DNA of 33,746 nucleotides from a virus (Duplodnaviria; Caudoviricetes): IMG/VR virus record IMGVR_UViG_3300032103_000281, positions 1-33,746 of that record. One strand, 5' to 3'. A program made the translations under genes and the position numbers. Below the pieces are notes generated by a model. It was given only the letters and a program-made list of their open reading frames with translations. It made no database searches and was not told the DNA's origin. Positions 15,586-33,746 of the stretch are shown here, one piece after another; position 1 is the stretch's first letter, and the number at the start of each line of letters is the position of its first letter.

Positions 15586-17619
15586 TTACCTTTGGTGCGT
15601 CCATTTTTTCTTACCAGCATCCCAAACCCTGTCGTAACCCATCGATTGCATTATTTCCCAGGTTGCATTGGGAAAGCACGTTTTACTTTTGAGGGTTCTG
15701 TAGTCATTAGTAAGAAAATAATCAACATCAATTTCACCGACAAAAACAAATCCACTATCTATGAGTAACTTTTCTTCATTCAACATGTTGTTTGAATGTG
15801 CTTCAATTGTTTTTACGTTAGGGTGCTTTTCTAAAATGTAAGAAACAATAGATCGAAAGACGCCGTTATACCTATTATTAATTTTGCTGCAAAAGTGATC
15901 TATGACAATTAATTTTTCCTTAACTGAATACAAGACCACACTGCACAATTCGTTGTTATAAAATGCACCGACAGAAAAACTATCAGCGCAAACATGTACA
16001 CTTTGAGCTGTGTAATTTGAGTTCAAAAAACTTAAGCCAAGAGAACAATCAATTTCTTTGATTGAGCAATTTTTGTCGCTGATAACAGGCAACTGGTAGT
16101 TAATTGCTTCTAGAATTAAATGTTTTACAATTGGTAACTTTGACCAAAAATCAGAACTGAAAAATTGTAACAAGGTGACGCCTGCTGGTAATGATTTTTC
16201 GTATTTAGAATAATGGTAGTTGCGATCCTTTTTGCCTAAAATTTCCGAATGTATTTCTAAACCATGTAGCTCAATGCCAACATTATTTTCTTTAAGTAAA
16301 ATATCAATTTCTAACCTATTTCCCAGGACAGTTCTATCTCGTCGTTTGAATTGTATGTTTAGGCCCGAAAGAAATTCAACTAGAACTTCTTCCATGGCCG
16401 AAGGCGGATCAAACTTCATCTGATCAACGACCCCATACTTTCGTGCGTAGCCCAAAATAATACTAGATGTTTTTGTTCCAATTTCTTTTGCTACATCAAC
16501 AGAAGTTCTTCCGATAACCGTTTCACAAAACAACTCTCTATCTTGAAGAAAATTGTAAACCGAATCTGACATATTCAACTGTGCTGCATTTGTTCTGCCA
16601 TATCGTTCAGATAACGTTGCTTTAACTTGCTCTCCCCATGCATCAGTAGATGAGTAATGTTCTACATCGTACTTTGCTAGCATTGTTTGTTTAGCTTTTT
16701 TCTTCACCTCATCTGTTTCGAACGGGTTCTTTCCGTCATATATCTCAGATAGTTTTTCTCTAGCATGCGTCATGAAAGAACCGTATCGTTGCAATGTGGT
16801 CTTTGCTACTTTACTTTGAATTTCGGCAGATTGAAATGGCGTATCCACACCATATCGTTTTTGGCAGGTTTCTTTCATCTTTTGTCGGACCTCTGGGTTT
16901 TTTACGCCCCACTCATATCCAGTTCGAAATAAGTTACCTTCCTTTAACTTTTCCACTACTTGCGACGACTGCATTGGGTTTTCAACTCCGTATCGTTCGA
17001 CACAAGTTTGTTTGATTTTGTCAAAAACCGCCCTCTTTTCTTCTTCTGATTTCTGTTCGTGCAATCTAGAAATAATAGCAGAATGTTCTTCTTTGTTGCA
17101 TCGACATGATGTTTTGTCTCCACAAAATTTCCTATATCCTAATTCGTATGAGTTGAATAGTGGAGTCTTTCCACATTTGTTCGCATGTGGTTGCCCTTTT
17201 AAGACAATATACACCATTTCAGCAATACTGTTTGGTTGATACTGTTTTGTTGCACTAATTAAAAGGGTAATTAAGTATTTTCTATCAGCAACAACAGTTC
17301 CAAAGTTTTTAGACTTAACCCCATCTAATAGTTTTTCTAAAATAGACCGCAGCGATCCGTCGGTTCCATGTGAATCCACTAACTGTCGATACATCTGATA
17401 AGCCGATTCTACTTGGCTTTCTAATGCAACTGATAACCTATTATTTTCACTGACTGCACACGGGTCTGAATTTGCTAGCTTTGTGTTTTTAATTTCGCGA
17501 AGGTAAATTCGTAATTTTCTTTCCCTTAATTGATAAAGCCGTAGTTCATCAAAATCGGGGTTTGGTTTGTTGCTTAAAATATCGTCTAAGCTTTCTCTTA
17601 ATCGAATTGGTTTGTTCAT
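15586..17619 (-). CDS. Homing-endonuclease-like protein (xYGV repeats + PD-(D/E)xK/Vsr-like nuclease + GNAT-like C-terminus)
   Basis: Repeats TCVERYGVENPMQ, TCQKRYGVDTPFQ, TMLAKYDVEH; LEIDILL....VGIELHGLEIHS; ends RVWDAG. Confidence 0.75.
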   Translation of the reverse strand: MNKPIRLRESLDDILSNKPNPDFDELRLYQLRERKLRIYLREIKNTKLANSDPCAVSENNRLSVALESQVESAYQMYRQLVDSHGTDGSLRSILEKLLDGVKSKNFGTVVADRKYLITLLISATKQYQPNSIAEMVYIVLKGQPHANKCGKTPLFNSYELGYRKFCGDKTSCRCNKEEHSAIISRLHEQKSEEEKRAVFDKIKQTCVERYGVENPMQSSQVVEKLKEGNLFRTGYEWGVKNPEVRQKMKETCQKRYGVDTPFQSAEIQSKVAKTTLQRYGSFMTHAREKLSEIYDGKNPFETDEVKKKAKQTMLAKYDVEHYSSTDAWGEQVKATLSERYGRTNAAQLNMSDSVYNFLQDRELFCETVIGRTSVDVAKEIGTKTSSIILGYARKYGVVDQMKFDPPSAMEEVLVEFLSGLNIQFKRRDRTVLGNRLEIDILLKENNVGIELHGLEIHSEILGKKDRNYHYSKYEKSLPAGVTLLQFFSSDFWSKLPIVKHLILEAINYQLPVISDKNCSIKEIDCSLGLSFLNSNYTAQSVHVCADSFSVGAFYNNELCSVVLYSVKEKLIVIDHFCSKINNRYNGVFRSIVSYILEKHPNVKTIEAHSNNMLNEEKLLIDSGFVFVGEIDVDYFLTNDYRTLKSKTCFPNATWEIMQSMGYDRVWDAGKKKWTHQR

Positions 17620-18992
17620 ATTTTTAGTCGGAGTAGTTTATGTCCGCAGTCCCAGATTCTTTGGAAATTTTCGCTTTCTAAAATAGAATTATTCGAGAGC
17701 AAAACATTGCCGTCGGTCCATGCATAATCGGGTTCTAATTGTTTTTCTAGAACAAATCCTGCTTTTTCTAAATCGACTCCGATTCCGTATCTTCGATCAA
17801 CCGTAGCATACACCGACGCATTGTGATTTTGTCTAAAGTAATCAATAATTGTAGATAGCCCTTTAGTAACAACAACATTCAATTTACTACAAATTCGAAC
17901 CAATTCCCAGTCGTCATGTTGTATTTGCTTAAACAACCCAACCATTGCGAGTTCGTTGTTATGTTCTAGGCCGATTGTTAAGTCTGCATAAGTGAACCCT
18001 TGAATGTGATTCTTTTCTAAGAATTCTCTCGATTTGCTGTCACTTAACTTCACAACTAAACATTCGCTAGCTAATATTTGCTGAGATAACCCCAATTTGC
18101 CTGCAATGATGGATTTAACTATTTCTTCTTTTTGATTCCACTCAACATCGTAAAAATGCAAAAGTTCAACTCCATTGTTCTCTGCATTAATTGTTTTGTT
18201 TAAATGATAATCTTTCGGTTTGTATTTTTCAGAGTGCCAATGCAATCCGTTAATTTCAATGCCTAAATTAAAGTTTTTCACATAGCAATCAATTTCGTAA
18301 GGTGGTATCATTGAATAACAACCCATTTCGTGTTCAATGTTCAGACTACTAAGCCAGTTGCTCAATCGAACTTCAACTATTGAATAGTTTGATCGCTTTT
18401 TAATCTTAAATCCGTACAGTTTACAGTAATCAATGACCGTTCCGTAATAGCAGTCTAATTCTGCTGCTATATCAACTGCTGTCCTGTTGTTTAGGTTGTA
18501 TTCTACGTCTAGCCAGGCTTTGTCTTTTAACTTTGAATGAATTTCAGGTAATAATTTACTTTTCTCCCAAATGTGATGAATGTCGGGCCGTTGCGAATTA
18601 AACGCAACACCGTATTTTTCAATCATCGTTTGTTTTCTTTTTTCGTTTGTGTGGGATTGGTCGTTTAATTGCCTAGATGCAATCATCTTTTTTGTTCGTA
18701 ATATGTCTTTGTCTGCACATGATTTTGAACAAAAATTATGCAAAGCCCTATTTGTTACTTTTGCTGGTTTGTTGCAGTAACAAAGCGGAATTGAATCAAA
18801 ATGGCCAGCATCTAAAATACGGACTCTTTGAATGTATGAATACTCAGATAAATGCGATGTTTTTCGAATAAATTCTTCCCATAAGGAAAGTTGATTAATT
18901 TTAGAAAAATGTTTCTCGGATAGAAAATAAGAACAAATTTTACCAGAGCTATTATTAATTAGTCGACGAAAGGTTTGGTACCAATTAGGCAT
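17616..18992 (-). CDS. Homing-endonuclease-like protein, same family
   Basis: FCSKSC zinc motif, TMIEKYGV, HTH-like RTAVDIAAEL, YEIDCYV....LGIEINGLHWHS, FLEKNHIQG, WELVRICSK, RIWDCG. Confidence 0.8.
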   Translation of the reverse strand: MPNWYQTFRRLINNSSGKICSYFLSEKHFSKINQLSLWEEFIRKTSHLSEYSYIQRVRILDAGHFDSIPLCYCNKPAKVTNRALHNFCSKSCADKDILRTKKMIASRQLNDQSHTNEKRKQTMIEKYGVAFNSQRPDIHHIWEKSKLLPEIHSKLKDKAWLDVEYNLNNRTAVDIAAELDCYYGTVIDYCKLYGFKIKKRSNYSIVEVRLSNWLSSLNIEHEMGCYSMIPPYEIDCYVKNFNLGIEINGLHWHSEKYKPKDYHLNKTINAENNGVELLHFYDVEWNQKEEIVKSIIAGKLGLSQQILASECLVVKLSDSKSREFLEKNHIQGFTYADLTIGLEHNNELAMVGLFKQIQHDDWELVRICSKLNVVVTKGLSTIIDYFRQNHNASVYATVDRRYGIGVDLEKAGFVLEKQLEPDYAWTDGNVLLSNNSILESENFQRIWDCGHKLLRLKI

Positions 18993-18996
18993 GACG

Positions 18997-20673
18997 TTAA
19001 TTTTTAATGTTCAATTGAAGTAATTTATGCCCGCAGTCCCAGATACAATCGAATTCTGTTTTCTCACAGATTTTGTTTGGATCATTTTTATATTTTTTGA
19101 TTATCTTTTTTGCTTCTTTTTGCGGAACTCTAGCTTCATAATCAATTACTAACCACAGCACTGGGTCAATATCAGATATACAAGAAAAACCTAAATCTAA
19201 ATAATCGTTTGGATTTTCCCATCTAAGGTCTATACAAAAATTAATAAACTCAGGATTTAAGGTAGTTTTAATATGCTCAATGAATTTAGGAAAAATGAAT
19301 TTTCGACTAATACCAGAAGTAGAAAAGTCTACAATATCAACTGTATCCTTATTTAATGTTAACGATACGGTTGCTACTAATTGGTTATTCAGCCAAGCCC
19401 CGTATACAACTTTTTCGTCGGGTATATCTAAAGACAACGAGTACTCATCTAAAAACGAATTAATAGTATTTTCGTCTGTTAATTTCTCTATTTTTAAAGT
19501 TTCTTCGGGCAACGGAATTATAGGACTTACAATGTCTTTAATTCTTGCAATAACTGCATTATTTTTTCTGTTATTTTCATCAGAAAAAATAGTAATTAAG
19601 TGAAACCCTTTATCATTTGCTCGTTTTGTTTTTGTTTGGTGATACTCTGCTTTTTTACCTAAACTATAATACGAATGCCAATATAGACCGCAATATTCTA
19701 TTGCTACTTTTAGATCAGACAAAACAATGTCTAGTTCGTATGGTAAAATAATTCGCTTGTCAGACTGATGATATTTGGCTTCAGGAGAAAAGTGTTCAAT
19801 AAGATTAACTATTGATATTTCTTCGTTGCTACAATAAGATGGTATCTTTTTAGGGGAGCAAGAAGGACACTTGATATTTGGAATATGATAAATTTTTTGT
19901 TCAAATTCGTAACCACAGTTATCGCACTTGAGTAGATATACAAATGCGTCTTTCATTTTAATGCCTTGGTATTCCTCAAATGGAGTTAAGAGCGTAAAGT
20001 TTGCATTTTCTTTTAAATTCTTCTTAACAAGGTTATATCCGATTTGTAGCCATTCTTTATCTTCGGTCATCTTCTTGTTTCGTTCGCGAGTATACTGTTT
20101 GACTTTTGGTAGTTGAAGTGGGTTTTTAACACCGTATCTTTCTAAATTGGTTTTTGTTATTTCTTGTCTAATTTCTGGCAATTTCAACGAACTGCTAACC
20201 CCGTATCTCTCAAGGCAGGTTTGTTGCGATTTAGCTGTTACGTTTGCAACTTTTTCTTTATCGGCATAAAATTCTTGATGCTTAGCCTTTGCTTTATTTG
20301 TTTGTCCAACATTAGCCACACCGTATTTCTTTAGGTTCGTTTCTTCTCGTTTTTTCCTTATTTCTTCTACCTGTTCTTGTGTTTTATTTGTGTGAAAGGT
20401 TTTAGAAGCTATACTTTTAGCTTCTGCTGCACATTGTAGACACCCCCTTGTCCACCCGGTATAGATGTCTACAAATTTAAGTCGGTTTCCGTGTTTACAA
20501 GTGTTAGTTTTGTCTAGATGAATTGAACTATAAATCTTTTCAACAAAACTGTCTATAGTTAATGATGAATTAAAGTTATTTAACACCCACTCTTTTAGTG
20601 TGGGGTTACTCTGGATCATTTTAGAAAAGTGTTTTGGCTTTTCTTTGATTAATTGCTCAATTTTTTCTTTCAT
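18997..20673 (-). CDS. Homing-endonuclease-like protein, same family
   Basis: TNLKKYGV, TCLERYGV, TNLERYGV repeats; CDNCG...CPSC zinc ribbon; YELDIVL....VAIEYCGLYWHS; CIWDCG. Confidence 0.8.
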   Translation of the reverse strand: MKEKIEQLIKEKPKHFSKMIQSNPTLKEWVLNNFNSSLTIDSFVEKIYSSIHLDKTNTCKHGNRLKFVDIYTGWTRGCLQCAAEAKSIASKTFHTNKTQEQVEEIRKKREETNLKKYGVANVGQTNKAKAKHQEFYADKEKVANVTAKSQQTCLERYGVSSSLKLPEIRQEITKTNLERYGVKNPLQLPKVKQYTRERNKKMTEDKEWLQIGYNLVKKNLKENANFTLLTPFEEYQGIKMKDAFVYLLKCDNCGYEFEQKIYHIPNIKCPSCSPKKIPSYCSNEEISIVNLIEHFSPEAKYHQSDKRIILPYELDIVLSDLKVAIEYCGLYWHSYYSLGKKAEYHQTKTKRANDKGFHLITIFSDENNRKNNAVIARIKDIVSPIIPLPEETLKIEKLTDENTINSFLDEYSLSLDIPDEKVVYGAWLNNQLVATVSLTLNKDTVDIVDFSTSGISRKFIFPKFIEHIKTTLNPEFINFCIDLRWENPNDYLDLGFSCISDIDPVLWLVIDYEARVPQKEAKKIIKKYKNDPNKICEKTEFDCIWDCGHKLLQLNIKN

Positions 20674-24946: not shown

Positions 24947-27900
24947 TTATGGAAACGGAGTAGGTTCGGTGTCACCTTCTGGTCCACCCAAGTTACCTGG
25001 TTCGCCTTCTGGTCCACCCCCCATATTTAATTCGCCTTCGCTACCTTCTAATCCCATGTCAACGCCAGCAGACATGTCTGATGTGATACCGCCTGGCGTA
25101 ATGCCCATTGATCGCATGTCTGCTGAGCCAGTGTTCTTGCGTTCTGCTGTACCGTTCTCTTCGGTCCACATTTCTTCGTTAAGCTGAATCTCTTCTTCAG
25201 TTAGACCTAAGTATCGTCTCAGAATGAAACGCTTAGATAGGTATGAGAATTGTTCTACTTGGGTGAATGCAGAAATTCGTGCGGTGTCGAGCTCAGCTTG
25301 TCGATACTGAGCGAAGTTTTGTGGTTCTGTAAACCAAAGATTAAATAACGCACTATCAATGTTAATACCACGCCAGTTTAAGAACATCTTGAATTCTTTA
25401 TCTAGCTGTGGAATAATACTGTTTTGCAAACGCTTACAATACTGATTGAAACGCCACTCTTGAATAAGTGCAGTTCCGACCTTGCCGTTTGCATATGCTC
25501 GTTCGCTTTCTTCTTCTTGCGTTGGTAGATAACTGGATGGGATGCGCAAACCACGGAATAGCTTGTTAGTAAAGAAGCGGAGGTCAGCTACTTCACCAAC
25601 TGATGAGTTTTGGGTAAAAATACCAACTTCAAGAGCAAAGTTATGATAATCGTGGTATACTTCATCTCCGTCGATTGTTAGTGTGCCGACTTCTATTTTG
25701 TCTGACAACCGTTCAATCGAGACAATTTTGTGGTTATATTTTGTTACATCACGCTTAAAATGTCTCCAATTAGAATAGCCGTGTTGCTTAACACAGTCAC
25801 TTAGCATGAACGGAGAAATATAATCTCCTTTCCACTTCTTGCTATTGTTGCCAATGTTTATGGCTCGGAAGTGCTTCATAAATTCTTCGTTAGTCGAAAG
25901 GTAAGACGCTGCACTCGATAAAGTTTGTGTTGATTTGCTACCTTGTGATAAAAGATAAGATTGAATCATGTCCGTCAAAGTTTTATCATATTTTAACTTT
26001 TGGTTGGCGAACATTTTTTCATAATTCACAGGGTCTTTTGCGCGGGCAGCACTGTAATTGCTGATTTTTTTCGAACGCTCATTATATTGTTCGGTTTGTT
26101 TAAATTTTTCCCACCCTAATGCTTTTTGCTGAATAAAAAATTCTCTAAACTCTGGGTTTTGTAGTTTTTTTTGTAATTTTGCATTTGCACCAGAGAGATT
26201 AGAAATGTTAGTTGCACGGTCTCGCGCTTTTTGTTCCTCTGTGCGGTTTTTTAGATATTTTTGTTGTGCCGCAAACAAATTAGCAAGACGCTTTGCTCTT
26301 TCTTCGTCAGATAGACTTTCCCACGCCTTTTTAGAGCGCTCACTGATTTTTTTACTTCTAGCAGCATATGCCTCAGAATCATGTTCTTTCATATGTTCTA
26401 GGGCAGCTTTTGCTGCTTTTGTTCCTAGTCCTTGTGCTTCTTTAGAGAAGCCATGAAATGTGTGATATTCTTTGTGGTCTTTCCACCCCATAATAACTAA
26501 ATTAGATGGCGAGTTATTGTATCTGTTATGGTCTTTATGGTGTATTACAAACGAGTTATCACTGTCAATAGATTCGTCAAATGCATAAAACTCGAGGCTA
26601 ATAAACCTACAAACCATTCGATGGACAAATTCCCATTTTTTAGTATCGTTTTGGTAGACTTGTGTATACTCTTTTTTACGGGTTTTAGACAGGTCCTCGT
26701 TTTTTGTATTAAACGGTATCATACTTTCGCCAACTGTTAATTTGTCAGCGCGGACTTTACCTTTACCAATAACCGGAAACTTGTGGTCGGGTGTTGCGAT
26801 TATCTCTTCACCGTTGTCGAGCGTAATACGAAGAACATCTGCAGATTTTTGTGTTACACCAGCCCATGTAATTAGACCAGGACAGACCTCGCCTGTTTCT
26901 GGGTTACAACTAAAGGCCCAGTTTTCTTTTCCGTTATTATATTCTTCTTCTAGCTCTTTGATAGTTAACGTCCTGCCATCTAACAACGGAACCCTAGTGT
27001 CCATTGCTAAACACCCCCCGGGGAGCTGTTCAACACTAGAGCCGCGGCCTTCAGATACAGGAAAGAAGAAGTCTTCGTTAATACTAATTGGGTTATATGT
27101 TGAATCCGTAACCATGTTCCCGCCGCCGGTTCTTGTAGGAATACGACGCTGTTGGATCTCGTTTTTTACTTTCTCAACATATGCCATCGCCATGTGTGCT
27201 GGCATGTTACCGACATCAATTTTGAAAATACGACGCTCTGGTGCACGATTAAGACGATAGATGATAACCGCATCTTCTAGTAATTCTTTTTGCTTATATA
27301 CTTTATAAACTGTTTCAAGAACAGATGATGCAAAGGGCCACGTTGCATCTAAGCCTTCTGATAAGCTAAGATGTAAAATGTGTTCTGCTGGAATAGCCGC
27401 TTCTTGGTCTTGTCTCGAAAAGCGAGAAGACCCGCCAGTAAACGCAGCAGGACCTGCTAGAGAAAAGTTTGTCCCACCGCCGCCACCAGGGGGAGATGTG
27501 TGTTTGGTGTTTGCTGTAATTGCTGCGGTTGATAGCGCATTTAAATTGGCAGCAAGATCTTTAATGAAGTACTGTTCGGGTTCTTTACCGGCACCTTCAT
27601 TTACAATAATCTTGATTACTTTTTCAATCTCAGTCCAGTGAAGAACAAATGTTTCTGGATCACGAACAAACACTTGATCACCAAATTTCAACGTATTACG
27701 AAAAATTCGGAAAATCCGTTGATCGAATTGATTGATTTTACACCACTGTTGTAGTTGCTCTTTGATGATTTTAATTTCAGAATCAGTCGCTTTATCGTTA
27801 TAGTGGATTTCAAACGGCAAACCAGTAATATCTGAAGATTGTGTGCAGAATTCAGCCAGAATATCTAATGCTGCATTGATCTCAGCATCCATATCCATTC

Positions 27901-28126
27901 TGTTAATTTCACCGTATCGGTCAATACGATTTGGATGACCAATATAAATGTCTGGAAGGTTGCTCTCCCAGTTTGCAACCCCAGGGGGAACAGACGACAT
28001 GCCTGCATTGCTAGATATGTTACCGTTTTTATTACGGCCAGAAATCGGACTTATATTACCAGAGGTGTCTACTTTAGCAAATGCACTAGAGACGTTTGAA
28101 GTTTTAAAATATTTTTTCCAGGACAT
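24947..28126 (-). CDS. gp20: Portal protein, T4 gp20-like, containing an intein
   Basis: LEDAVIIYR..RAPERRIFKIDVGNMP, EDFFFP, LPGG, LRIPSSYL motifs; 590 aa remain after removing the intein. Confidence 0.95.
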   Translation of the reverse strand: MSWKKYFKTSNVSSAFAKVDTSGNISPISGRNKNGNISSNAGMSSVPPGVANWESNLPDIYIGHPNRIDRYGEINRMDMDAEINAALDILAEFCTQSSDITGLPFEIHYNDKATDSEIKIIKEQLQQWCKINQFDQRIFRIFRNTLKFGDQVFVRDPETFVLHWTEIEKVIKIIVNEGAGKEPEQYFIKDLAANLNALSTAAITANTKHTSPPGGGGGTNFSLAGPAAFTGGSSRFSRQDQEAAIPAEHILHLSLSEGLDATWPFASSVLETVYKVYKQKELLEDAVIIYRLNRAPERRIFKIDVGNMPAHMAMAYVEKVKNEIQQRRIPTRTGGGNMVTDSTYNPISINEDFFFPVSEGRGSSVEQLPGGCLAMDTRVPLLDGRTLTIKELEEEYNNGKENWAFSCNPETGEVCPGLITWAGVTQKSADVLRITLDNGEEIIATPDHKFPVIGKGKVRADKLTVGESMIPFNTKNEDLSKTRKKEYTQVYQNDTKKWEFVHRMVCRFISLEFYAFDESIDSDNSFVIHHKDHNRYNNSPSNLVIMGWKDHKEYHTFHGFSKEAQGLGTKAAKAALEHMKEHDSEAYAARSKKISERSKKAWESLSDEERAKRLANLFAAQQKYLKNRTEEQKARDRATNISNLSGANAKLQKKLQNPEFREFFIQQKALGWEKFKQTEQYNERSKKISNYSAARAKDPVNYEKMFANQKLKYDKTLTDMIQSYLLSQGSKSTQTLSSAASYLSTNEEFMKHFRAINIGNNSKKWKGDYISPFMLSDCVKQHGYSNWRHFKRDVTKYNHKIVSIERLSDKIEVGTLTIDGDEVYHDYHNFALEVGIFTQNSSVGEVADLRFFTNKLFRGLRIPSSYLPTQEEESERAYANGKVGTALIQEWRFNQYCKRLQNSIIPQLDKEFKMFLNWRGINIDSALFNLWFTEPQNFAQYRQAELDTARISAFTQVEQFSYLSKRFILRRYLGLTEEEIQLNEEMWTEENGTAERKNTGSADMRSMGITPGGITSDMSAGVDMGLEGSEGELNMGGGPEGEPGNLGGPEGDTEPTPFP
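25607..27013 (-). mobile_element. Intein (469 aa) with HNH homing endonuclease
   Basis: LPGG|CLAMDTRV (block A), IIATPDHKF (block B), HNFALEVGIFTQN|S (blocks F/G); internal VHRMV...IHHKDHNRYNNSPSNL HNH motif. Confidence 0.92.
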
Positions 28127-30932: not shown

Positions 30933-31796
30933 ATGGAACAACCAAACCCACTTTCTAAATATTTTCGTCAACCTACCTTATTTGTAAGCTTGCCGTCAGC
31001 GGGCAGGTGGTATAATTCCGAGACAATCACATATTCAAACAATAATAACGACGAACAGGAAGTTGCTGTTTATCCATACACTGCAATGGATGAAATCATG
31101 ATGCGATCACCTGACGCATTACTAAACGGAGTAGCAGTTACAACTACTTTGAAGAGCTGTGTTCCTGCGTTTGCTGATCCATGGGAAATCCTAACATGTG
31201 ATGTCGACAAATTGCTTGTCGCAATGCGTGTTGCATCATACGGTCAGAAAATGGAACTAAATGCTAATTGCCCACATTGTAACGAGGAACTAACATACGA
31301 CGCCAATTTAGCAGTTCTACTTGATTCTTTTAAGCCTGTTGAATTCCATGCGTTACAGTTAAGTAACGGCATCACCATTCAATTCCGTCCAATTACATAT
31401 CGTCTTGCTACTAAAATTAATACTCTCCGTTTTAACAATGAGCGACTAAGCATCCAACTTAGACACGAAGCAGAAGCCAACCCAGACACAGATCAATCGG
31501 CAATACTAGAAGAAATTGTAAAGAATTCGCGAAATATTACACATTTATCAATCGCATTCTCGACTGAGTACATTCAAACACCAGATGGCAACAAAGTAAC
31601 CAAATTCGAAAACATCTTAGAGTTTGTATCAAACATTCCCCGCGAACTATTTTCACAAATCGAAAAAGGACTAACCAATATTACCAAGAATAATAAAGCA
31701 TTCGACGATTTCGAAATTGTTTGCACTGCATGTCACAAAACATTCAACTCACCATTTTCGTTTGATCAATCTGATTTTTTCGTAAAAGGCTCTTGA
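30933..31796 (+). CDS. Baseplate hub subunit, T4 gp26-like
   Basis: NPLSKYFRQP, LPSAGRWY, YTAMDEI, D.DKLLVAMRVASYG, CPHC and C-terminal CTAC...DFF motifs. Confidence 0.82.
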   Translation: MEQPNPLSKYFRQPTLFVSLPSAGRWYNSETITYSNNNNDEQEVAVYPYTAMDEIMMRSPDALLNGVAVTTTLKSCVPAFADPWEILTCDVDKLLVAMRVASYGQKMELNANCPHCNEELTYDANLAVLLDSFKPVEFHALQLSNGITIQFRPITYRLATKINTLRFNNERLSIQLRHEAEANPDTDQSAILEEIVKNSRNITHLSIAFSTEYIQTPDGNKVTKFENILEFVSNIPRELFSQIEKGLTNITKNNKAFDDFEIVCTACHKTFNSPFSFDQSDFFVKGS

Positions 31797-32011
31797 GTCT
31801 ATCCCACGAAGAAATCATTGAGTACATTGAATCTTTAGAGAAAAGTGCAAGAGCCATAAGGGAAACGCTATTACAATTAGCTTGGTCAATGCGTGGAGGT
31901 GTTACATACGAGGAACTAGCACACTCATCCCCGACAGATAGAGAGATCATGTTAAAGATCACGAACGATAATATTGAAATCACAAAGAAGACAAACTTAC
32001 CACATTTTTAA
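31793..32011 (+). CDS. Baseplate hub assembly protein, gp51-like
   Basis: 72 aa overlapping the gp26-like stop; W.MRGGVTYEE.....DRE pattern; call rests mainly on synteny. Confidence 0.55.
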   Translation: MSLSHEEIIEYIESLEKSARAIRETLLQLAWSMRGGVTYEELAHSSPTDREIMLKITNDNIEITKKTNLPHF

Positions 32012-32031
32012 GATAACTTAAACACTAGATA

Positions 32032-32226
32032 TCAGCTATCAGAGCCACTACGCCAAAACAAAGGCAGTGAGTTTTCGATAGCTGATTTCTTTTGACCTAC
32101 ATTCTCTAAGCCCTGATTCGTTATCATAGATTGAATTACGGCCATATCCTCTGTCGTTAGCGAACAATCTGGTATATCAGAACTACTATCAACGAACATG
32201 TTTGTGGTGATTTTGTATTGTTTCAT
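32032..32226 (-). CDS. Small hypothetical protein
   Basis: AAGGA RBS; MKQYKITT start (32226 or 32232). Confidence 0.55.
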   Translation of the reverse strand: MKQYKITTNMFVDSSSDIPDCSLTTEDMAVIQSMITNQGLENVGQKKSAIENSLPLFWRSGSDS

Positions 32227-32359
32227 CTTCATTTTTCCTTCTACAGAAATTTTAGTCAGAGTATCGTCCAGAACGTAGTTGATTGTTCTTTCACAGTTTC
32301 TAAACTGTATTTTAGCTTTTTGTGTTTAAGGAAACTTTTTGATTTCTACTGTTCTTATC

Positions 32360-33340
32360 TATTATTTGGTTTGCTTGCGCAAACCAGCAAACATCAGTTT
32401 CTCATTCGTTTCGTTACACTCAACTCAATCGAAACTTCGTTTGCACTTTCTTCTCTACTTTTTTGCACTCTCAATTATGATTATTTCTCTATCGAACTTT
32501 TAATTATTATTTTAATTATTATTTTTTTAATTATTAAGGACGTTCCCTTACGAACGGGGATGGATTCACAGAGGAAAGGCTCAGAATTCTGCTATTGCTA
32601 GCAGAAAACGAGCCAATCAGACACCGAAGACGATTCTCTTCACGTCGGACGAAGCCCACCCACGGAGTCATTTGTTTGTGTAGTGCTACTACACTCTCGG
32701 AGGCGGTTGCGCGGTACCCCCATCAGACTCGAATCCTTCTTACAACGCGACGTAAATGAGTTCGTGAGTGTTTAACTTCATTTACGTTGGTAGGTGCATC
32801 TTTTTCTACAGAGCTACCATCGTTTAGCCACCTTTGGTTGTGACTTTCACCCCAGTTATTTTTGGATGGCACCCTAGACTCCACTGCCCATAACTTTCAG
32901 ATACAGCTCCTAGGGGGTTCGAACCAGATCATTGCCTAATATTTTGACTAGCCTTGGGTAGAGCACCGATATGTAGCGTTTAACGACTCCGCATCAACCA
33001 CCTTTTCAGTGTAGTCCAGGTTTTTGGATCCCCGACTACGGGTGACAGTTCCACAAAGTTTTTCTACTTGGTATCCCAGAGCTTGTTAAAACTCAAAGGC
33101 CCGAATCTCACGGGTGGGTAGGTTCCATTTGTTTCTCTGCGACTCTACTTAATACTAATCCCTCGGCAGCTACCCCGAGGACCATTCTACTTTTACAGTT
33201 AGCCAGACCCACTACCTCGCCGACATACAATCTATGGCCAAGCCGACAACGAGCATAACTATCCTTGACTACCAACTAACCTTATTACATAGGTGGTTTT
33301 TTTGCTACTGTGACGCTTCACAGCGTGACGTTTACTACTT
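32360..33340 (-). ncRNA. Candidate large structured non-coding RNA (family not recognised)
   Basis: No credible ORF; many stems (32367-32386, 32578-32614, 32678-32694, 32750-32787, 33011-33039, 33161-33180, 33308-33323); GCAA tetraloops on minus strand; upstream promoter; boundaries approximate. Confidence 0.65.
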
Positions 33341-33344
33341 GCTA

Positions 33345-33375
33345 CTATATTATACTACTCAGAGTATTTATGCAA
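33345..33375 (-). promoter_or_regulatory. Overlapping late (TAAATA) and sigma70-like promoter directed into the ncRNA candidate
   Basis: Minus strand TTGCATAAATACTCTGAGTAGTATAATAT: TTGCAT -35-like box, TATAAT/TAATAT -10-like box at 15-17 nt spacing, TAAATA embedded. Confidence 0.55.
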
Positions 33376-33389
33376 TACATTTTGGCTGA

Positions 33390-33565
33390 AAAAATTCTGT
33401 CGCCTTTGTATACTTTTGATATTACATAATACACTCGATTTAATGAAGTCATACAAACAAAAGTCTAAAATCGGTTACTAGTTCGACGATCAGTACAGTA
33501 ACGTCGACTGTATTATTTAGCTCTTAGGCAGCAATCCTGCTGTTTTTAAAGCAGCATATGGTCTG
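33390..33565 (+). mobile_element. Probable degenerate tnpB relic
   Basis: ATG 33443 MKSYK; 33502 RRLYYLALRQQ (TnpB R.lYN.AL.Q-like); right-end-like AATCCTGCTGTTTTTAAAGCAGCA hairpin. Confidence 0.45.
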
Positions 33566-33663
33566 TCTAAGAACTAAATAACATTGTCGTACAACGGTGA
33601 CAAAATGATTTGCAATAACACCGATGATCTGTTAATTGATGAATCGAATTGAAAGGAAAATAA

Positions 33664-33746
33664 ATGACGTTACCATCAACTGGTGCAATTACACTAGAAA
33701 ACATTAGAACTGCATATGGTGGTTCTGGCACCACTTCTGCTTTTTC
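33664..33746 (+). CDS. 5' end of a putative tail-fibre/adhesin-like protein (partial), paralog of the gene at 1-61
   Basis: MTLPSTGAITLENIRTAYGGSGTTSAF; AAAGGA RBS; TAAATA at 33575. Confidence 0.65.
   Translation, partial: MTLPSTGAITLENIRTAYGGSGTTSAF

Follow-up and report, generated by a model that had tools for sequence, protein, structure and literature searches.

The window analyzed here is an entire 33.7-kb viral contig (33,746 nucleotides) with T4-like head, tail and baseplate genes on board. Near its end, a stretch of almost 1 kb (32360..33340) raises the question of what DNA that encodes no evident protein is doing among structural genes. A preliminary description took it for a single structured RNA of about 1 kb, read from the minus strand. 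It was right that a credible ORF is lacking: no ORF of at least 60 aa lies in 32602–33663, and the 127-aa plus-strand frame that overlaps the low end of the region (32218–32601, TTG start) has no Pfam match. The GC fraction is indeed raised, at 0.46–0.50 in 32600–33299 versus 0.32–0.34 on both flanks, and every arm of the stems listed at that stage is found in its place. No known family had been recognized, and Rfam likewise gives no credible match in 31900–33746 at E values up to 10. The sole Rfam match across the window is freshwater-2 (51.7 bits; 15577–15498, minus strand), ahead of a 119-aa gene without known family. ARAGORN finds no tRNA and no tmRNA in the window.

The neighborhood is that of the baseplate hub, as first noted. 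The gp26-like hub gene (30933..31796, plus strand) lies outside the element, adjoins it and is the syntenic anchor for the family; its product is 28–34% identical to counterparts in Atu_ph07, BF, RaK2, PA5oct and Phosso. The element is placed between the plus-strand gp26–gp51 pair and a plus-strand gene starting at 33664, and a 66-aa ORF (32232–32032) lies downstream of it. Between convergent gp51 and this ORF, a strong hairpin region (32000–32119; z −6.3, plus strand) is a probable terminator. On the other side, a long inverted repeat (33509–33585; z about −5) carries TAAATA on opposite arms and strands (33520 minus, 33574 plus) and possibly represents divergent late promoters. Further away on the minus strand, the portal protein gene (24947–28126) is interrupted by an intein containing an HNH-type endonuclease, and three large free-standing homing-endonuclease-like genes, two with DUF7487, stand in tandem behind the major capsid gene (15586–20673).

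Relatives of the element in T4-like jumbo phages

Loci anchored on gp26 relatives formed the starting set and gave weak, syntenic minus-strand matches to the window. A profile from those matches finds the element in 109 of 153 loci, including 57 of the 61 T4-like jumbo-phage loci with full flanks (near-copies included); of the four misses, L085 has the element just past its flank. A covariance model built from 34 relatives, with the window left out, identifies a conserved core in the window (32665..32824, minus strand) at 49.7 bits (E 5.7e-10), the runner-up in the window reaching 12.6 bits. Each of seven large contigs (G001–G007) has exactly one match. The strand assigned earlier is borne out, as the model matches only the minus strand here and G-U pairs are kept among relatives. 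At two positions of one helix, G-U is present in 26 and U-G in 33 of the 34 sequences.

Cultured phages are scored weakly. A 21-bit match inside coding sequence of PA5oct (201.9 kb) sets the noise level near 21 bits, and the syntenic sites of BF and PA5oct reach 17.4 and 8.7 bits, respectively; position, together with helices read by eye, makes both likely members of the family. For Phosso and RAS14, which have a gap at the syntenic place with no useful model score, position and helices read by eye are again the basis; RaK2 has only a short gap and no model match there, and Atu_ph07 gives no match. Four tiny annotated CDSs of PA5oct (gp338–gp341) overlap the probable RNA (L004, 6189–7001) and may be mis-annotations. 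The PA5oct RNA-seq paper lists four ncRNAs, all located elsewhere.

BLAST of the window region against GenBank phages returned chance-level matches only, and searches with one relative against phages and two relatives against plasmids (PLSDB) gave nothing useful and no plasmid match. Window-specific patterns had 0 matches in viral contigs and 0 in metagenomes, and a protein-anchored metagenome scan confirmed no relative; the long form seen in the window is therefore without close known homologue. Rfam has no family that matches the shared core or the 3′ part. We found no description of the family in the literature searched; the supplements of PMC2864571 and PMC10690425 were covered in part, and an earlier listing there is possible. 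Four motifs had no match in the portion of the Fremin 2023 supplement files that was searched.

The 5′ part of the element varies among groups. In 5 of 26 related loci scanned (L016, L019, L066, L069, L374), it is the Rfam motif Polynucleobacter-1 (RF01718; PMC2864571), which is absent from the window, and unrelated domains take its place in others. Group D (L176, L178, L181) has a longer version with a clear sigma-70-type promoter and repeats of its own. One possibility considered is that the element is a cis-regulatory leader, or an antisense regulator, for ORF 32232–32032 or for the convergent gp26–gp51 message. The 66-aa ORF does follow on the same strand, and the element usually faces gp26–gp51. 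However, neighbors and orientation vary, group D reads in the same direction as gp26, and the satellite described below has neither gene. We regard regulation of this kind as the most improbable of the explanations weighed here.

Covariation and anatomy of the element

In a set of 61 non-redundant copies, reduced from 99, the columns that covary most strongly are Watson–Crick pairs of several helices and of two pseudoknots. Pairing cells hold a pair in 91.2% of cases in the 34 sequences, compared to 74.3% in shuffles and 44–52% in slid controls, which are lenient controls because the structure was drawn from the same 34 sequences. Both partners have changed in 24 of the 35 pairs. Different letters in the window still allow the same helices and the two pseudoknots. 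Homologues and covariation thus support the earlier call of a conserved, structured, minus-strand and uncatalogued RNA-like element.

Read along the minus strand, many relatives begin at an AGGCA box (32933..32937 in the window). The same box is found in ssb leaders of three of three genomes versus 46 of 478 leaders overall, which hints at common timing with replication genes. Within the core, helix P1 encloses a conserved A-rich loop (32788..32819, with 32819–32814 paired to 32793–32788) and is followed by the long hairpin P2 (32751..32786), whose loop (32770–32764) can form seven pairs with 32663–32657, giving pseudoknot A. The hairpin P4 region (32699..32746) has a stem of 32721–32716 with 32704–32699, and its loop (32710–32706) can pair with 32746–32742, giving pseudoknot B. 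This loop had been proposed to pair instead with a distant segment, 32989–32999. The distant pairing is possible at −16.2 kcal/mol, a value equalled in 6% of 300 shuffles, and covariation in relatives assigns the loop to the segment just upstream. We therefore rejected it as a pairing of the family; as an alternative private to the window it is possible. Covariation upholds two pseudoknots, neither of which is the one first put forward.

Upstream of the core, a GC-rich, ORF-poor 5′ extension (32945..33340, minus strand) has no homologue and folds no better than shuffles, and it may be part of the transcript. Its comparison with group D yields 16 shared letters (E 0.69), which is not significant, and those with PA5oct and Phosso are likewise not significant. 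The fold is weaker than had been claimed. The 811-nt fold has a z of −1.67 on the minus strand and −0.73 on the plus strand; by part, the minus-strand core (32945–32540) has −2.46 and the 5′ part (33335–32940) −0.09. At the start of the extension, overlapping promoter-like signals occupy 33349..33375 on the minus strand: ATAAATA of late type (33371–33365), TATAAT (33354–33349) and a weak −35 (33375–33370). Both words of the promoter proposed earlier are present, and its sigma-70 character is less secure, with that weak −35 and no entry for the site in the list from a sigma-70 consensus scan. The TAAATA word also stands ahead of several structural genes in the window.

Downstream of the core come a 3′ hairpin and a partial direct repeat (32565..32649, minus strand), the hairpin (32614–32578) carrying a GCAA loop and the repeat consisting of GTGAA at 32643–32639 and 32569–32565. 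An AT-rich tract follows (32473..32532), the lowest-GC 60-mer of the window with 6 G+C (the next lowest has 12) and a candidate unwinding element. Beyond the tract is a minus-strand cluster of mini-hairpins of single-stranded-DNA type (32367..32441; near 32441, at 32421–32411 and at 32386–32367; motif class per PMC13037366). Of the two GCAA hairpins that had been assigned to the RNA, the one at 32614–32578 has its place in the 3′ hairpin of the element. The other, at 32386–32367, sits past the AT tract within the DNA-type cluster and probably lies outside the RNA. The single 1-kb RNA first described reads better as two pieces, an RNA core and a separate DNA-level module on its 3′ side.

A DNA-type 3′ part and repeats that change in step

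The partition between the two parts was counted in 78 non-redundant loci, drawn from 116 selected on the basis of their repeat. The core is rich in GNRA hairpins, with 43 in 26.9 kb (1.6/kb, where controls reach 0.22/kb at most). Over the 170 nt that follow the core, the sense strand has 39 GNA triloops in 13.1 kb (3.0/kb versus about 0.25), with 13 on the other strand. A tandem-GA mini-hairpin, whose loops show no GNRA preference, is present on the sense strand of 60 loci and on the other strand of 19, where 0.005 is expected per strand. One of the two such motifs in the window is found here, at 32421, behind the most AT-rich 60-mer. According to PMC13037366, such mini-hairpins have much greater stability as DNA, are located at primase sites of phages G4, St-1 and alpha3, and also occur in N4 promoters. 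In the element, they are carried by the non-template strand, which in ColE1 is the strand displaced.

The DNA-type character of the 3′ part could be extended to the whole element, which would then fold as single-stranded DNA with no RNA involved. Single-stranded DNA and RNA are hard to tell apart by comparative analysis (PMC5737381). The GNRA excess and fixed G-U pairs of the core nevertheless speak for RNA, as do the promoters upstream, and we consider a DNA-only element highly improbable.

Most relatives carry two short direct repeats flanking the 3′ hairpin, stricter than those of the window. In 58 of 60 aligned copies, the two repeats agree in all of their first 6 nt, compared with a mean of 12 and a maximum of 23 after shuffling. 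Sixteen variants occur, with spacers of 38–57 nt. Two marker positions have changed 16 times on the tree, with the change almost always shared by the two repeats. By eye, similar repeats are also present in groups C and D and in phage BF; the window departs from the strict pattern and keeps only GTGAA, twice. No recurring complement of the repeats is found in cis. We infer from the in-step changes that an identity rule is enforced through the opposite DNA strand, rather than by a protein site. One explanation would be that the two copies take turns in pairing with a single template strand. Alternatively, the new strand may realign between the copies.

A satellite core and a proposed replication origin

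A pattern scan of bacterial genomes produced 11 loci, five of which score at least 28 bits by the model. Four of the five (L380, L381, L383 and L386) are binned into bacterial MAGs and look like contigs of the same phage group. The fifth (L379/L390, G008) is an element of ~10 kb integrated at tRNA-Leu in a Kiloniellaceae MAG, with genes for an integrase, an Arc-type regulator, portal, protease, capsid, HNH and large terminase proteins. In this satellite, the core scores 50.7 bits, and at about 66% GC the two pseudoknots and an 11-nt repeat are retained; the part downstream has no clear GNA mini-hairpins. The RNA is positioned directly before a cos-like word and the terminase. No replication-domain match was found in 13 ORFs tested, and the small upstream ORFs could include an initiator. 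A search of 127 genomes of the host's order returned only this known case.

Sibling satellites (L391–L470) make up a large family of ~10-kb capsid-forming integrated elements with interchangeable replication genes. With default filters, the RNA is found in 0 of 80 siblings. We tested 34 of 66 listed upstream ORFs, one per locus, from 47 loci with enough upstream DNA. Replication-type domains are present in 19 (12 AAA_25, 5 HTH_36, 1 VapE/Toprim and 1 PriCT, the last below the cut-off), 14 have no match and one has a weak tail match. As the siblings have Rep-type ORFs where G008 has the core, upstream of the terminase, the RNA occupies the usual slot of a replication gene in this single example. 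One sibling (L425, 650–1550) has no long ORF before its terminase and instead a stretch rich in hairpins, with GAA triloops, which may be a further origin without an initiator.

The satellite also bears on the possibility of an RNA for late packaging or virion assembly, or of a site where packaging starts. The pRNA of phi29-type phages is required with the terminase and is bound to proheads. The satellite RNA immediately precedes the large terminase, annotation of that one example revealed no small terminase, and in the window a late-type promoter word lies upstream, with head and baseplate genes as neighbors. Against this, the siblings keep the same terminase and the cos-like word (68 of 80) and package without the RNA, which weakens a role in packaging. 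In PA5oct, the locus is 76 kb into a 287-kb linear record, far from the ends. A packaging function is, in our judgment, quite improbable.

The main competitor is a free, trans-acting non-coding RNA, a scaffold or protein sponge in the manner of GOLLD and ROOL, with the DNA hairpins a separate neighbor or a signal at the transcript end. The element resembles GOLLD and ROOL in being large, structured and phage-borne. A free RNA would account for the elaborate tertiary-type conservation, the GNRA loops and the swappable 5′ domains, including Polynucleobacter-1, and the element has its own sigma-70-type promoters upstream in group D, PA5oct and BF. It leaves unexplained why DNA-type mini-hairpins on both strands are so closely tied to the RNA, why repeats that have no RNA partner change in step, and why the core occupies a satellite's replication slot. 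In addition, a scan of the minus strand finds nothing resembling a terminator behind the core. The element also differs from GOLLD and ROOL in its DNA-type 3′ module, in a window without tRNA and in the lack of an Rfam match. We consider a free RNA unlikely. The roles initially suggested (ribozyme, scaffold, virion RNA) have no direct support, and several lines point to replication.

On balance, we favor the reading of this locus as a ColE1-like origin of replication that is primed by RNA and would need no dedicated initiator protein. In ColE1, a long RNA stays in a persistent hybrid from which synthesis is primed, and this leaves the non-template strand open to helicase loading (PMC5043065, PMC4412123). 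By analogy, transcription from the upstream promoter would yield an RNA that folds into the double pseudoknot. Near its 3′ end, the transcript would stay hybridized to the template as an R-loop and prime DNA synthesis, and the displaced strand would expose the mini-hairpins, predicted loading sites for primase or helicase. The likeness to ColE1 RNA II, as described in those sources, would lie in a long structured RNA from an upstream promoter, no need for an initiator gene, loading on a non-template strand that has been displaced, and pairing of part of the RNA with template DNA to start the hybrid. There is no sequence likeness to RNA II by Rfam in the window or by the plasmid search with two relatives. 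ColE1 replicons are plasmids, whereas the element belongs to jumbo phages and one satellite and has a double pseudoknot, an AT-rich tract and in-step repeats on its side.

Two further systems are informative. The origins oriF and oriG of T4 consist of a middle promoter and an unwinding element and use R-loop priming (PMC4412123). The element shares with them a T4-like phage, promoter-like words of uncertain class and a downstream AT-rich candidate unwinding element, and adds a conserved fold of 350–800 nt, mini-hairpins and a single match per genome. The late-type TAAATA in the promoter region of the window is a poor fit to an early origin. ARRPOF, GEBRO and PAGEV are structured motifs of 223–349 nt tied to plasmid replication regions, and the ARRPOF region supports replication without a rep gene (both from PMC5737381). 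Rfam matches to these three, or to GOLLD, ROOL, RNase P or introns, are absent from both the window and the 26 related loci scanned.

GC skew tracks the coding strand in G003, G004, G005 and PA5oct, without a switch where the element lies. Neither GC skew nor fourfold-site skew gives an origin signal, with a T-over-A strand component of 0.02–0.04 in three genomes that has no G-over-C match. The missing switch rules out a simple bidirectional origin and is still compatible with a start that is one-way or T4-like. No RNase H domain is found in G003–G005 or PA5oct, and Phosso has one weak match; host RNase H could act in place of a phage enzyme. RVT_1 is absent from all five related genomes, which weakens a reverse-transcriptase-linked role (retron, DGR); the window's own contig is a 34-kb fragment.

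A broader proposal, which we advance tentatively and with somewhat less confidence than an even chance would warrant, is that the widespread, uncatalogued family serves T4-like jumbo phages as a self-contained module for replication. It would combine a double-pseudoknot primer RNA, a template found through identical repeats and single-stranded-DNA loading hairpins, and be portable enough to replace the helicase, primase or initiator genes of small satellites. In the literature searched, we found no paper that maps an origin or describes this RNA for RaK2/PA5oct-like jumbo phages, and the locus supplies one precise candidate site in the cultured relatives, namely Sinorhizobium phage Phosso (PV764938, about 229.8–230.8 kb), BF and PA5oct (NC_071039, about 75.8–76.8 kb). 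Should the element prove to be a free RNA instead, it would still be a large uncatalogued family with an unusual in-step repeat. If the origin reading is true, the orphan motif Polynucleobacter-1 would gain a role, and the element would offer a phage-dependent replicon or an anti-phage target. RNA-primed, initiator-free replication would then extend from ColE1 plasmids to large phages and to satellites.
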